Below, piece by piece: positions 20,854-52,055 of a DNA stretch of 64,000 bases. The notes under the pieces are model-generated. The model was not told the DNA's origin, ran no database searches, and saw only the letters and a list, made by a program, of their open reading frames with translations. Source of the DNA: Escherichia coli. Its GTDB lineage: Bacteria > Pseudomonadota > Gammaproteobacteria > Enterobacterales > Enterobacteriaceae. The DNA is taken from assembly GCF_024298765.1 (NCBI RefSeq), contig NZ_CP101210.1; one strand, written 5' to 3'. The stretch's first letter is position 1, and each line of letters starts with the position of its first letter. A program made the position numbers and the translations under genes.

Positions 20854-20868
20854 CCCCAGAAACATCAA

Positions 20869-20896
20869 CGGCTCCTGAATCAGGAGCCGTCTTATT
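20869..20896 (+). terminator. Rho-independent terminator after ytfL
   Basis: CGGCTCCTG-AAT-CAGGAGCCG hairpin followed by T-rich tract. Confidence 0.6.
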
Positions 20897-27547: not shown

Positions 27548-27654
27548 TTAATTAAAGTGGCATCCTCCCGCATCCTCTCTGATAATGACGGGATGCCGGG
27601 AGCAATCATGTCTGCTTCCTGAACTTTCTTCTGACAGACCAATGGATGCCAGTA

Positions 27655-28620
27655 ATGATTAGCGGCGTGCTGTACGCCCTGTTAGCAGGGTTGATGTGGG
27701 GGCTTATTTTTGTCGGGCCGTTGATCGTACCGGAATACCCGGCGATGTTGCAGTCGATGGGGCGTTACCTGGCGCTAGGGTTAATTGCGCTGCCCATTGC
27801 CTGGCTGGGACGCGTGCGTCTGCGTCAGTTGGCGCGTCGCGACTGGCTTACCGCCTTGATGCTCACCATGATGGGCAACCTTATCTATTACTTCTGCCTT
27901 GCAAGTGCCATTCAACGTACTGGCGCGCCTGTTTCCACGATGATTATCGGCACCCTGCCGGTGGTGATTCCCGTTTTTGCCAATCTGCTTTATAGCCAGC
28001 GCGACGGCAAACTCGCATGGGGAAAACTCGCCCCGGCACTGGTTTGTATTGGCATCGGCCTGGCGTGTGTGAATATTGCTGAGTTAAACCACGGACTCCC
28101 CGATTTTGACTGGGCACGTTATACCTCAGGCATCGTGCTGGCGTTAGTTTCCGTAGTCTGCTGGGCATGGTATGCCCTGCGCAACGCCCGCTGGCTGCGG
28201 GAGAATCCCGACAAACATCCGATGATGTGGGCGACGGCGCAGGCGCTGGTCACGCTGCCGGTTTCTCTCATCGGCTATCTCGTCGCCTGTTACTGGCTGA
28301 ATACGCAAACGCCGGGCTTCTCCCTACCCTTTGGCCCCCGTCCGCTGGTGTTTATTAGTCTGATGGTTGCGATAGCCGTGCTTTGCTCATGGGTTGGCGC
28401 ACTCTGCTGGAACGTCGCCAGCCAGCGATTACCGACAGTGATTCTCGGGCCGCTGATTGTTTTCGAAACGCTGGCAGGCTTGCTGTACACCTTTTTGTTA
28501 CGCCAGCAAATGCCGCCGCTAATGACGCTGAGCGGTATCGCGCTGTTAGTGGTTGGCGTGGTCATTGCAGTCAGAGCAAAACCAGAAAAACCTTTAACTG
28601 AATCTGTCTCAGAAAGTTGA
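27655..28620 (+). CDS. ytfF: Inner-membrane DMT/EamA-family transporter
   Basis: Multi-TM ORF; start taken at MISGVLYALL (321 aa). Confidence 0.85.
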   Translation: MISGVLYALLAGLMWGLIFVGPLIVPEYPAMLQSMGRYLALGLIALPIAWLGRVRLRQLARRDWLTALMLTMMGNLIYYFCLASAIQRTGAPVSTMIIGTLPVVIPVFANLLYSQRDGKLAWGKLAPALVCIGIGLACVNIAELNHGLPDFDWARYTSGIVLALVSVVCWAWYALRNARWLRENPDKHPMMWATAQALVTLPVSLIGYLVACYWLNTQTPGFSLPFGPRPLVFISLMVAIAVLCSWVGALCWNVASQRLPTVILGPLIVFETLAGLLYTFLLRQQMPPLMTLSGIALLVVGVVIAVRAKPEKPLTESVSES

Positions 28621-28678
28621 CACGCTGGCAGTGAGTTAAATAAGCCTCTGCTACGTAAGGGTTATAGCTTTTGCCTTA

Positions 28679-28701
28679 AAGATGCATTTAAAATGCATCT
28701 T
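28679..28701 (+). promoter_or_regulatory. NsrR operator upstream of ytfE
   Basis: Perfect 11-1-11 palindrome AAGATGCATTT-A-AAATGCATCTT, 27 nt upstream of the ytfE ATG. Confidence 0.7.
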
Positions 28702-28727
28702 ATCTTATTAAGAATGAGGTATCAGCT

Positions 28728-29390
28728 ATGGCTTATCGCGACCAACCTTTAGGTGAACTGGCGCTCTCTATTCCTCGCGCTTCGGCTCTGTTTCGTAAAT
28801 ATGATATGGATTACTGCTGTGGCGGTAAGCAGACGCTGGCGCGCGCGGCGGCACGTAAAGAACTGGATGTTGACGTCATTGAAGCCGAACTGGCAAAGCT
28901 TGCTGAACAACCGATTGAGAAAGACTGGCGTAGCGCCCCGCTGGCAGAAATCATCGACCATATCATCGTGCGCTACCACGATCGCCATCGCGAGCAGCTG
29001 CCGGAGCTGATCCTGCAAGCGACTAAAGTCGAGCGCGTTCACGCCGACAAACCGAGCGTGCCAAAAGGGCTGACAAAATACCTGACTATGCTGCATGAAG
29101 AGCTTTCCAGCCACATGATGAAAGAAGAGCAGATCCTCTTCCCGATGATCAAACAAGGCATGGGCAGCCAGGCAATGGGGCCAATCAGCGTAATGGAAAG
29201 CGAGCACGATGAAGCGGGTGAACTGCTGGAAGTGATCAAACACACCACCAATAACGTCACACCGCCGCCAGAAGCCTGCACCACCTGGAAAGCGATGTAT
29301 AACGGTATCAATGAATTGATTGATGACCTGATGGATCACATTAGTCTGGAAAATAATGTACTGTTCCCGCGCGCGCTGGCGGGTGAGTGA
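28728..29390 (+). CDS. ytfE: Iron-sulfur cluster repair di-iron protein (RIC)
   Basis: 220 aa ORF; hemerythrin-like His/Glu-rich repeats; NsrR box upstream. Confidence 0.93.
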
Positions 29391-29403
29391 TTTGTTCGAT
29401 CAA

Positions 29404-29434
29404 CGCACCTGGTTTACACAATCAGGTGCGTTTT
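29404..29434 (+). terminator. Rho-independent terminator after ytfE
   Basis: CGCACCTG-gtttacacaat-CAGGTGCG hairpin followed by TTTT. Confidence 0.65.
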
Positions 29435-29636
29435 CAAATGCTTTGAGTTATTCACCACTCCGGGACAATCTTTTGTATCTACTGAACTGGGAAAATTCAT
29501 TATTCAGCCAATAATAAGTTCCTTCAACGGTTACTAACTTATTTTTTTCATTAATATAATTACTTATTCATCGCTCCTGTATAAGCCAGAATAAAATCAC
29601 CCATTCCCTAGTTTTTACGTGTACATCCAGCTACCG

Positions 29637-30704
29637 CTACGCTTCCACCCACACCGACCCGCCATCATGGCGGTTCATCAGCGACCACAGCACATGGAAT
29701 TTCTCGCCTCTTTTATACTCCCCCTCCATTTTCCTGTCCGTCCATTCTGGCATCTGCTCTCCCTGCTCCAGTGTCACCGTCGCTTGTCTACCTTCTACAA
29801 AAATCGACCACTCCCCGCTATGAGGACAAGCTTCACCGCTAAAGGCCGCTATCCGCTGCCGGTCTGTAACATACTGCGCTTCGCGCTGTGGCCAGTTGTA
29901 CAACTCCTCCGGCATGCCCTGTGGGAAAAATCCCTCCGGCGGCACATTGATAAATCGGTTTGCCACCCGCCGTATACGTTTCCAATTGCATTTTGCCCAC
30001 GCCCCGCTTTCCCAGTAATATTCTTGTATCCCAGCCTCGTTGACATACTTCGTTCGTACCCGCCCCTGCCAAGCCTCGGGAATATGTTCACTCCGGTACA
30101 ACAGTTGGGCGCTGGCATCTGGGATATCCGGCAGATACAGGCCAGCCACCGTTACCGGGTCATCCTCACGCAGGTATACGCTACTATCCAGCTCATACAA
30201 CGGTAATTGCATCGGCAGGGCCAGCGGGCCGTGCAGACTTTCCTCATAATAATAAGTCAGTTCGCCGTCATACCAGTATCCGCCCGAGGTACGTCTGATT
30301 AAATTATTATAATGTGCACCTCGCCATTTCAGTCTGTCATACTGTTTTTGCGCGGCGAGTGACATCCAGTCCGACGGATAATCAATTAGTCCTTTCATAT
30401 CACTGCTAATATTGCCCCCGGATTGCAGTACCCGCAGGTCCCCCTGCTGTAGCTGAATAAAGTCATACTGTACCGACTTTAAAGTACTGCGGATATTGGG
30501 CAACACTCGCCCGCCCCAGACGACGTCAATCTGCTCGCACAGCGGACGACGGCGCACATCCAGCGGCATGGCCTTGCTCCACTCTGCCACCTGTCGCTCG
30601 CACAGCTCGACAAACTCCTGCCACCCCTCAAAACGACGCCGATAATATTCCGGCGACATTATTCTTTCCAGCAACCAGCACTCCTGTGGATGTAATATAG
30701 CCAC
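29637..30704 (-). CDS. Hypothetical Trp/Tyr-rich cytoplasmic protein (355 aa from GTG with AGGAG Shine-Dalgarno; ORF track gives 373 aa from ATG at 30758)
   Basis: Long ORF in the ytfE-cycA insertion; no signal peptide, no TM segment, no motif I recognise; 16 Trp by my count. Confidence 0.6.
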   Translation of the reverse strand: MAILHPQECWLLERIMSPEYYRRRFEGWQEFVELCERQVAEWSKAMPLDVRRRPLCEQIDVVWGGRVLPNIRSTLKSVQYDFIQLQQGDLRVLQSGGNISSDMKGLIDYPSDWMSLAAQKQYDRLKWRGAHYNNLIRRTSGGYWYDGELTYYYEESLHGPLALPMQLPLYELDSSVYLREDDPVTVAGLYLPDIPDASAQLLYRSEHIPEAWQGRVRTKYVNEAGIQEYYWESGAWAKCNWKRIRRVANRFINVPPEGFFPQGMPEELYNWPQREAQYVTDRQRIAAFSGEACPHSGEWSIFVEGRQATVTLEQGEQMPEWTDRKMEGEYKRGEKFHVLWSLMNRHDGGSVWVEA

Positions 30705-30958
30705 TTTATCTCCTGATTTATTAATTAATTGTCTATTGATACTTTTATTTCGGTACATAAATATTTGTTTGCAACTGAGACACAGCTATATACATATCCA
30801 CTTCATCTATCATCGGTACGCTGACCGTCAAAATAGACGCTGCGTTTATCGGCAGCGAAAGCGCCGAATGCCTGAAAACTGGCGGCATCAACATTAGGTT
30901 CACCGGATGGATTTTTCAGGACTTTGCCTGCCCAAAGGACAGAACGTCCATCGGTGAG

Positions 30959-31237
30959 TCAGGTATGCTGGCAATCCCCCTCATCATCGCAATCGAACTT
31001 ATCGGGATTAAAATCGGACAGTAACCGGGAATCTTGTTTATTGGCTAAATTGGCAATGCGCCAGAGGCGGGACAAATTAACGTCCGGCAGTTCGGAGAGG
31101 ATCTCATCTTTTTTCCCCTTCTGTTCGGCAACGTAAACAGTGCCTTTCTCCTGCTGGCGGTAATAAAAATCCGCGCCCCAGGAAGGTGAAATGGAGAGAG
31201 GTAATGCGGCGATTAATAACCAACTGCGCTTAACCAT
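30959..31237 (-). CDS. Hypothetical small secreted protein (signal peptide, acidic Cys-containing C-terminus)
   Basis: ORF 30959-31261; start taken at ATG giving MVKRSWLLIAALPLSISPSWGA signal peptide; C-terminus DCDDEGDCQHT. Confidence 0.5.
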   Translation of the reverse strand: MVKRSWLLIAALPLSISPSWGADFYYRQQEKGTVYVAEQKGKKDEILSELPDVNLSRLWRIANLANKQDSRLLSDFNPDKFDCDDEGDCQHT

Positions 31238-31321
31238 AATGAACTCTGCAATGAGTGGCAAAGATTCACGGTAAGCCCGCGCCTGGGGGGATGTCGATGA
31301 CGGTAAGTTTTTTTAGGAATG

Positions 31322-31350
31322 TATAAAGACAAAGGCACCCGCAGGTGCCT
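31322..31350 (-). terminator. Putative terminator downstream of cycA
   Basis: AAGGCACC-CGCA-GGTGCCTT hairpin followed on the minus strand by a T-rich tract. Confidence 0.5.
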
Positions 31351-31371
31351 TTCAGAGTGATAAACGCGGCA

Positions 31372-32775
31372 TTACTTCGCCATGCGTTTTTTACCAATAA
31401 ACAACCAGCCCAGCCCCAGCAAGATAAACCATAACGGGGTAACTATCAGCGCCTGGCGAGTGTCATCTTCCAGTGTCAGCAGCACGATCACGAACACAAA
31501 GAACGCCATACATACCCAGCACATCAGCTTACCGAGCGGCATCTTGTAGATTGATTTCTCATGCAGGTGCGGACGCTGTTTGCGATACACCAGGTACGAG
31601 CAAAGGATAATCGTCCAGACGAACATAAACAGGATCGCGGAAACCGTCGTGATCATCGTGAACGCACCAATCACGCTGGGATTCACATACAACATCACCA
31701 CGCCGCCGAGCAGACAGATGCAGGAGAAGGTCAGCCCTTTCGCGGGTACTGCGCGCTTAGAGAGTTTAGCGAACGCTTTCGGTGCCACACCTTCCTGCGC
31801 CAGACCAAACAGCATACGGCTGGTAGAGAAGACGCCACTGTTAGCGGAAGACGCCGCAGACGTCAGCACCACAAAGTTAATCACGCTTGCGGCAGCAGGC
31901 AGACCTACCAATACAAACAGTTCAACAAACGGGCTTTTCTCCGCGACCACCGAACTCCACGGCGTCACAGACATAATCACAATCAGCGCGAAGACGTAGA
32001 ACATAATGATACGGATCGGAATGGAGTTAATCGCGCGTGGCAGTGATTTCTCCGGATCTTTGGTTTCCGCAGCTGTTGTACCTACCAGCTCAATCCCCAC
32101 GAAAGCGAAAACCGCTATCTGGAATCCGGCAAAGAAGCCACTTAAACCTTTCGGGAACCAGCCGCCATCATTCCACAAATGCGTGAATGACGCTTCCACG
32201 CCAGTCGGTGACTGGAAGTGCATCATCACCATGATCAAACCAACGACAATCAGTGACACGATGGCGACAATTTTGATCATCGCAAACCAGAACTCCATCT
32301 CACCGAACATTTTTACCGTGGCGAGGTTTAGAACCAGTAACAGAATGATCACGGATAACGAAGCAACCCAGTCAGAAAGCCCAGGGAACCAGAATTGCGC
32401 ATATGCGGTAATGGCAACGACATCTGCCATCCCGGTTACTACCCAACAGAACCAGTAGGTCCAACCAGTAAAATACCCTGCCCACGGCCCCAGTAGATCG
32501 GAAGCGAAGTCACTAAAAGATTTGTATTCCAGATTCGAAAGCAGCAATTCCCCCATTGCTCGCATCACGAAAAAGAGCATAAAACCGATGATCATATAAA
32601 CGAAGATGATCGACGGTCCGGCAAGACTGATTGTTTTACCGGAACCCATAAACAGCCCCGTACCAATGGCCCCACCAATGGCAATAAGCTGGATATGTCG
32701 GTTTGTGAGATTGCGCCGTAGCGACTGTTCAGCCGGAGCCTGTTCTTCGGCAACGACTTTTACCTGATCTACCAT
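31372..32775 (-). CDS. cycA: D-serine/D-alanine/glycine:H+ symporter (APC family)
   Basis: 467 aa 12-TM ORF recognised as CycA (MVDQVKVVAEEQAPAEQSLRRNLTNRHIQLIAIGG...). Confidence 0.93.
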   Translation of the reverse strand: MVDQVKVVAEEQAPAEQSLRRNLTNRHIQLIAIGGAIGTGLFMGSGKTISLAGPSIIFVYMIIGFMLFFVMRAMGELLLSNLEYKSFSDFASDLLGPWAGYFTGWTYWFCWVVTGMADVVAITAYAQFWFPGLSDWVASLSVIILLLVLNLATVKMFGEMEFWFAMIKIVAIVSLIVVGLIMVMMHFQSPTGVEASFTHLWNDGGWFPKGLSGFFAGFQIAVFAFVGIELVGTTAAETKDPEKSLPRAINSIPIRIIMFYVFALIVIMSVTPWSSVVAEKSPFVELFVLVGLPAAASVINFVVLTSAASSANSGVFSTSRMLFGLAQEGVAPKAFAKLSKRAVPAKGLTFSCICLLGGVVMLYVNPSVIGAFTMITTVSAILFMFVWTIILCSYLVYRKQRPHLHEKSIYKMPLGKLMCWVCMAFFVFVIVLLTLEDDTRQALIVTPLWFILLGLGWLFIGKKRMAK

Positions 32776-33083
32776 GTTTTTTTCTTCCTGTACCTGTCTG
32801 TGTTGTTCAGGCTCTGCGGCCTTTTGTACGTCTATGATACGACGAATCTGTATCGGGACTCATCGATATTAGGTAAGAATAAGCGGGATGAATACTAAGA
32901 TTTAAATATTATGTTAATTACATGTTGAATTTGAGGGTCATATCACTCTGGTAACGCGAAACAGCTCACAAAAATAACCGCAACAGAGCCATTTGCAACA
33001 TAAAATATCGACAGTAAGCAAATTCTAGTTTTTACGCTCTGTTGTCCATTCCCCTCAAATCTGAGGGGAACAGAATGCGCTGC

Positions 33084-44230: not shown

Positions 44231-44722
44231 TTAATTTCCTTTTAACGGTTTTTTTATCGGTTTTAATAGTGCTGCAAGAGAGGTTGATGTTTCTCCTGTA
44301 ATAGATGGCGTCGAGCCTTCTGCCAGTGCTGTTAAATCCGTGGTGAGATGACCTTCTTTCTCGTGCCTCATCTGCAATGAGGCTGTCTGAGAACCTTCTT
44401 CATTCTTACTTGATGCACGAGAAAGCCCTCTTTTTTTAATCAAACGGGAATCCTGGAGCTGACGCCCTAAGTCGTCTTCAGCTGCAAGCTTATTTAAATC
44501 CGTTTCCAGGCCCAAAACCTGCATCACAGACAAATATGCCCCTATCGTGACCCCTGCACTTCCTGACTCCAGAGAGCGCAATGTTATTGGCGACATCCCA
44601 GCACGTTCAGCAACTTGCTTTGCGGTAAGCCTGCGTCGTAAACGAGCAAGTTTCAGCCGCTCACCAAATTCACTAAGCATCTGATTCGTATAAGGGAGTA
44701 ACGGTGCTGTTTTTTTACCCAT
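44231..44722 (-). CDS. HipB-like XRE-family HTH antitoxin with long Ser/Thr-rich C-terminal extension
   Basis: 163 aa; [26 protein letters not shown]; stop 2 nt before hipA-like start. Confidence 0.75.
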
Positions 44723-44742: not shown

Positions 44743-44763
44743 TTATGGCTATGATAGCCATAA
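44743..44763. promoter_or_regulatory. Perfect 21-bp palindrome TTATGGCTAT-G-ATAGCCATAA upstream of hipB-like gene (candidate autoregulatory operator)
   Basis: 10-bp arms, 21-41 nt upstream of the hipB-like start codon. Confidence 0.4.
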
Positions 44764-45076: not shown

Positions 45077-45103
45077 AAACGCCGACCACTGGTCGGCGTT
45101 TTT
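45077..45103 (-). terminator. Rho-independent terminator downstream of rplI (bidirectional in appearance)
   Basis: GCCGACC-ACT-GGTCGGC hairpin flanked by A-run and T-run. Confidence 0.65.

Positions 45104-50303: not shown

Positions 50304-52055
<1,752 letters not shown>

Follow-up and report, generated by a model that had tools for sequence, protein, structure and literature searches.

The perfect palindrome upstream of ytfE in an Escherichia coli genome is very probably the published NsrR operator of this gene, in a minority allelic form

The closest described counterpart of the site reported here is the operator that precedes ytfE (c5308) in E. coli CFT073. In a ChIP-seq study of NsrR in that strain, its 23-mer was the best-scoring 11-1-11 site by PatSer (ln P −25.13) and was ChIP-seq-positive for NsrR in vivo (PMC5320621, Tables 2 and 4). 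Transcription of ytfE was increased 69.6-fold with nitrate in CFT073 (PMC5320621) and 544-fold in a Salmonella nsrR mutant (PMC2884951), the latter in agreement with a preliminary description of the DNA analysed here, which had called ytfE a known NsrR-repressed nitrosative-stress gene. In strain EDL933, a PytfE-tnpR fusion was silent without NO and was induced by the donor NOR-4 (PMC7336997). The consensus of NsrR sites has been given as gATGyAT-N5-ATrCATc, in which operator positions 7 and 17 are the degenerate y/r pair (PMC1274295). A related arrangement is found at the yeaR–yoaG promoter, where a 7-2-7 NarL site centred at −43.5 (the NarL site of ogt is at −44.5; PMC10853779) is combined with NsrR repression, and both yeaR and ytfE were among the most nitrate-induced genes of CFT073 (PMC5320621).

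Here, we compare with these systems a palindrome upstream of ytfE in a 64-kb stretch of E. coli DNA (64,000 nucleotides, in the following called the window). The binding and regulation data come from other strains, of which CFT073 carries the identical site and K-12 and O157:H7 an allele with one mismatch. The site is already published down to the exact 23-mer and is bound by NsrR in CFT073. The NO-donor test of a ytfE reporter that had been proposed for this locus is likewise in print, in the form of the EDL933 fusion; the primers of this reporter map to positions 28558–28738 of the window, which narrows the location of the NO-responsive promoter down to 181 bp that include the operator.

The ytfE locus and its match to published NsrR sites

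The palindrome lies in a 107-bp gap between ytfF and ytfE, the local gene order being ytfH (− strand), qorB (+), ytfF (+) and ytfE (+). The co-directional upstream gene ytfF (27646–28620, +), coding for a DMT-family transporter, has its stop codon 58 nt before the operator. The regulated gene ytfE (28728–29390, +) codes for the RIC/YtfE di-iron protein; its product matched NF008221 over residues 1–219 of 220 (417 bits) and TIGR03652 (269 bits), and a GAGG Shine-Dalgarno sequence (28716–28719, +), which is kept in the cross-species alignment, is located 8 nt before the ATG. RefSeq annotates ytfE here, and its entries for matching E. coli genomes give identical genes and an identical start of ytfE. 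Of 5,426 complete E. coli genomes, 5,415 matched a 241-bp segment surrounding the palindrome, always with the annotation ytfF / ytfE. The palindrome had also been taken as support for the ytfE start call; the start is correct, but the operator adds little to it, since the full-length profile match, the GAGG sequence and the RefSeq annotation already fix it.

Downstream, ytfE is followed by an intrinsic terminator (29402–29436, +) with a 13-bp stem (AACGCACCTGGTT/AATCAGGTGCGTT) and then TTTC, and the region 29385–29450 folded at −21.6 kcal/mol (z = −3.6). A terminator scan passed over this element, probably because its GC-rich core arms lie 11 nt apart, compared with a loop limit of 3–8 nt. No Rfam match to known RNA families was obtained in 28000–29700 at E values up to 1. 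Between ytfE and cycA, the window carries an islet of about 2 kb (29391–31400), which contains a − strand ORF (29637–30758, 373 aa) annotated as hypothetical and without a Pfam or NCBIfam match, as well as a pseudogene remnant adjoining cycA; it was covered to at least 80% in just 355 of 5,416 complete E. coli genomes, and in K-12 cycA is found 44 bp after ytfE. A tblastn search returned no Rrf2 gene (nsrR) within the window. In the genome that matches best, which is that of E. coli strain 104 (a chicken isolate, 100% identical in three sampled segments) and not that of CFT073, nsrR is annotated at the equivalent of window positions ~64,967–65,392, about 1 kb past the window end and about 36 kb from the operator.

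The operator itself (28679–28701, unstranded; half-sites 28679–28689 and 28691–28701, centre 28690) has the sequence AAGATGCATTTAAAATGCATCTT, i.e. AAGATGCATTT-A-AAATGCATCTT, and its end lies 27 nt upstream of the ytfE start codon (ATG at 28728). An inverted-repeat search of the 64-kb window gave two arms of 11 nt with a complementarity of 100% and a spacer of 1 nt, so that the initial report of a perfect 11-1-11 inverted repeat was exact in both coordinates and sequence. The 23-mer pattern occurred once in the window, even when 3 mismatches were allowed, and in none of 100 dinucleotide-preserving shuffles. For perfect palindromes whose arms measure 11 nt or more and whose spacer is 0–3 nt long, the mean expectation was 0.03 per block-shuffled window, compared with 3 loci observed.

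The other two of these palindromes, also of the 11-1-11 type, are located at 20868–20890 (ACGGCTCCTGA-T-TCAGGAGCCGT, after paeA) and 45078–45100 (AAACGCCGACC-A-CTGGTCGGCGTTTT); they have GC-rich stems with A/T-run flanks and are ordinary intrinsic terminators, possibly bidirectional ones. A perfect 10-1-10 palindrome (TTATGGCTAT-G-ATAGCCATAA, 44743–44763) was also found in AT-rich intergenic DNA that precedes a − strand ORF (44231–44722), and a motif resembling it, TTTTATCTTTTTAT, occurs again at ~44735 and ~44826; this palindrome could be a candidate operator.

For comparison with published sites, a symmetrised weight matrix was built in leave-one-out fashion from the 25 other distinct sites of the CFT073 table, the ytfE site being excluded (PMC5320621). 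With this matrix, the operator scored 30.89 of a possible 31.04 bits, above every training site (12.3–26.2 bits), while maxima in 200 shuffles had a mean of 13.1 bits (sd 2.2). The runner-up in the window, TAATTGCATTACACATTCAATTT in the divergent control region of ulaG and ulaA (51889–51911), reached 17.1 bits, inside the range of the shuffled controls (maximum 24.6), and a match upstream of cycA (32904–32926) reached 14.5 bits, also inside that range; we claim neither as a site. The operator consists of two inverted 11-bp motifs (consensus AANATGCATTT) with a 1-bp spacer, the architecture of an E. coli-type NsrR box. Relative to CFT073, the 23-mer, the gene and the distance to the start codon are the same and no difference between the sites was detectable: the CFT073 motifs are given at 33 and 45 nt from the start (PMC5320621), and the half-site centres in the window lie 32 and 44 nt from the ATG. 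The comparison with curated NsrR sites that had been suggested thus led to an identical 23-mer, the top-ranked site of CFT073, and together with the score of 30.9 of 31.0 bits on a matrix of other published sites this ChIP-positive counterpart confirms that the palindrome matches the NsrR box. We put the probability that the palindrome is the NsrR operator of ytfE at about 95%, a figure that applies jointly to this assignment and to the explanation of repression given below.

Cross-species conservation and other readings of the palindrome

When one genome of each species was scanned for the pattern AAGATGYATTTNAAATRCATCTT, at least 120 loci were returned. Among the loci listed, the flanking genes transcribed away from the site included hmp (at least 44), ytfE (at least 42), Rrf2/NsrR-like genes (at least 32), truncated globins (PF01152, at least 20) and tehB (at least 5), and the divergent neighbours included a chemoreceptor gene (at least 19) and glyA (at least 4). 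The same gene set makes up the classical regulon of NO-stress genes that comparative genomics had predicted for NsrR (PMC1274295). At the 41 ytfE loci among the matches listed, all from Enterobacterales and, owing to their shared ancestry, not independent of each other, the site ended 24–28 nt, mostly 27 nt, before the ATG. In Acinetobacter, Legionella, Methylobacter and Bacillaceae, the NsrR operators that serve hmp, nsrR and truncated-globin genes follow the same AAGATGYATTTNAAATRCATCTT pattern, with the hmp start codon usually 13–32 nt downstream; they differ from the operator in the window in their targets, in a variable centre base and in the predominance of T7/A17 arms.

In those genera in which a chemoreceptor gene is divergent from ytfE (loci L008, L012, L025 and L042, among others), a CRP-like palindrome, TGTGA-N6-TCACA/TCTCA, is conserved about 50–60 nt upstream of the operator and about 30–40 nt upstream of the 7-2-7 block described below. 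It is missing in E. coli, where ytfF takes that side.

Read as RNA, the palindrome could instead be an intrinsic terminator hairpin at which transcripts of ytfF end, 58 nt past the stop codon of that gene. The terminator scan did flag 28679–28701 (10-bp stem and 3-nt loop, followed by ATCTTATTAA) and made no other terminator-like call between ytfF and ytfE, and the window allele folded as RNA at −10.7 kcal/mol (z = −3.3). However, G-C pairs make up just 3 of the 10 pairs in the stem and the run of U residues is broken, and the majority K-12-type allele, with a C·A mismatch in the stem, folded at just −4.0 kcal/mol (z = −1.3), so that the hairpin is not the conserved feature. Moreover, many other Enterobacterales have a divergent chemoreceptor gene upstream, where no terminator is needed, and carry the palindrome at the same distance from ytfE, and the 23-mer also precedes hmp and nsrR in unrelated genera. 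We consider it highly improbable that the palindrome is a terminator; ending ytfF transcripts would be at most a weak side effect of this allele.

By eye, the operator was unlike the type 1 and type 2 consensus sequences of IscR. It is barely credible that the palindrome binds a regulator other than NsrR (e.g. an Rrf2 protein such as IscR) or is a functionless AT-rich palindrome arisen by chance: related inverted repeats are indeed recognised by Rrf2 regulators, but the identical sequence was ChIP-positive for NsrR (PMC5320621), the operator almost equals the consensus of the other published NsrR sites, the genes associated across species are the NO-stress set and not Fe-S assembly genes, it has been published for K-12, CFT073 and Salmonella that ytfE is de-repressed and the ChIP signal lost when nsrR is deleted, and chance is excluded by the shuffles and by the conservation across genera.

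The ytfE promoter and a conserved block upstream

If the palindrome is the NsrR operator of ytfE, its position relative to the start codon bears on the mode of repression. Because the Shine-Dalgarno sequence occupies −12 to −9 and the site ends 24–28 nt before the ATG, transcription would start at or just past the operator end, which would place the −10 element inside the operator. The hexamer TAAAAT (28689–28694, +), which spans the operator centre and implies a start at ~28701–28702, is the putative −10 of ytfE. Its second base is the central base of the operator, which is not constrained by NsrR, and in gene orientation this base was A at 41 of 41 ytfE loci, compared with T23, A13, C2 and G1 at hmp loci and C9, A4, T4 and G3 at truncated-globin loci (all among the matches listed); the positions flanking near the operator varied freely across the ytfE loci. 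Bodenmiller and Spiro are said to have proposed in 2006 an inverted repeat overlapping the −10 of ytfE, hmpA and ygbA, and mutagenesis by Partridge et al. in 2009 reportedly indicated that both 11-bp motifs are required for full repression of ytfE.

The preliminary description had placed the site over the likely ytfE promoter. The TAAAAT inside the site and the invariant centre A speak for this placement, but the overlap is one that we infer, and a simple σ70 consensus scan returned no + strand promoter at the site, the −35 being poor. No convincing −35 was found for TAAAAT (AGCTTT is present at 17-bp spacing), nor was a better alternative −10. A literature search returned no ytfE transcription start, and ytfE is not mentioned in the supplements of Kim 2012.

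A −10 laid over the operator would suggest repression by promoter occlusion. In the mechanism that we propose, NsrR, an NO-sensing repressor of the Rrf2 family that carries an iron-sulfur cluster, would bind the two 11-bp half-sites as a cluster-holding dimer, and, with the operator covering the centre of the ytfE core promoter, the bound repressor would exclude RNA polymerase and keep ytfE silent. NO, including that arising from nitrite in nitrate respiration, would nitrosylate the NsrR cluster; the nitrosylated protein would then leave the DNA, and ytfE would be strongly induced.

A second conserved block lies 11–30 nt upstream of the operator (28649–28668) and reads TGCTACG-TA-AGGGTTATAGC in the window, the Enterobacterales consensus being TgCCCCT-AA-AGGG(G/T)TAT; it was conserved across the 41 Enterobacterales ytfE loci among the matches listed. 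Within it, TGCTACG-TA-AGGGTTA (28649–28664, unstranded) is a candidate 7-2-7 element of the NarL/NarP type, with a well conserved right half and a left half that is degenerate in E. coli. Compared with an inverted pair of TACYYMT heptamers with a 2-bp spacer, the left half in the window matched at 4/7 and the right half at 6/7 positions; among the matches listed for other Enterobacterales, 34 of 42 loci had 6/7 or more matching positions in the right half, and 27 of 42 had 5/7 or more in the left half. In E. coli, the distance of the block from the operator exceeds that in Enterobacter, Citrobacter and Kluyvera by 1 nt, and the element would be centred at about −44.5 relative to the ytfE start implied by TAAAAT.

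Control of dnrN (ytfE) by NarQ/NarP in enterobacteria was predicted by comparison in 2005 by Rodionov et al. (PMC1274295). The candidate element at 28649–28664 probably corresponds to this predicted NarP control, and as such would probably already be known. With the NsrR operator downstream of the 7-2-7 element, ytfE may share its layout with the yeaR–yoaG promoter; in contrast to the NarL site there, the ytfE element is a candidate only, with a left heptamer in E. coli that matches at the 4/7 positions given above. Such an activator would not be obligatory at ytfE, since nsrR mutants express the gene highly without added nitrate (PMC2884951).

Three other assignments of the block were considered and dropped for the NarL/NarP-like one. 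As a third NsrR half-site, it matched at about 8 of 11 positions when tolerance was allowed, by eye, and it is not in the 11-mer scan of CFT073 (PMC5320621); as a σ54 −24/−12 element, its spacing is wrong and not conserved, and as an IscR type 2 site only half of it matched, both judged by eye against the respective consensus.

Operator alleles among E. coli genomes

The operator is polymorphic within E. coli at the two positions that pair with each other across the arms, position 7 (28685), which is C in the window and in K-12 and T in a rare allele, and position 17 (28695), which is G in the window and A in K-12 and O157:H7 (neither position is assigned a strand). Every one of these differences concerns the y/r position at which the consensus is degenerate. 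The operator of K-12 (an MG1655 derivative) and O157:H7 is AAGATGCATTTAAAATACATCTT, with one mismatch between the arms caused by G17A; in K-12, the locus, the 11-1-11 architecture, the flanks and the distance to the ATG are the same as in the window, the A at position 17 is the difference, and the matrix scores were nearly equal (30.1 and 30.9 bits). The earlier description of the operator as perfect therefore holds for this sequence, but the perfect form is a minority allele in E. coli and the K-12 site has one mismatch.

A 35-mer of the window around the site was found exactly in 887 of 5,416 complete E. coli genomes and with a one-base difference in 3,681. The C/G allele of the window and CFT073 is a perfect palindrome (30.9 bits; RNA hairpin −10.7 kcal/mol) and, with these 887 exact 35-mers and an upper bound of ~1,017, accounts for about 16–19% of the genomes. 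The C/A allele of K-12 and O157:H7, with its one mismatch (30.1 bits; −4.0 kcal/mol), was found in ~3,700–4,200 genomes, roughly three quarters, and the T/A allele (e.g. strain F5505-C1), again a perfect palindrome (29.4 bits; −8.7 kcal/mol), was found in 121 genomes as an exact 30-mer, or about 2%. The two perfect alleles, C/G and T/A, differ on both arms. In other species, the window form (19/41) and the K-12 form (18/41) were about equally frequent at the ytfE loci among the matches listed.

We regard it as unlikely that the allelic series at positions 7 and 17 alters the affinity of NsrR between lineages. If it did, the NO threshold or the basal leakiness of ytfE would vary with lineage, and, since YtfE itself makes NO from nitrite and so feeds back on NsrR, the setting of the whole NsrR regulon would vary as well. 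PytfE serves as an in vivo NO reporter, and the operator allele of a strain is useful to know when such reporters are moved between strains. What is added here to a system already described well is small, namely the allele frequencies and the strict placement of the site across species, 27 nt before the ATG and with a centre A that does not vary, and the value of the site lies mostly in annotation: it marks ytfE as NsrR-controlled and NO-inducible in this strain.
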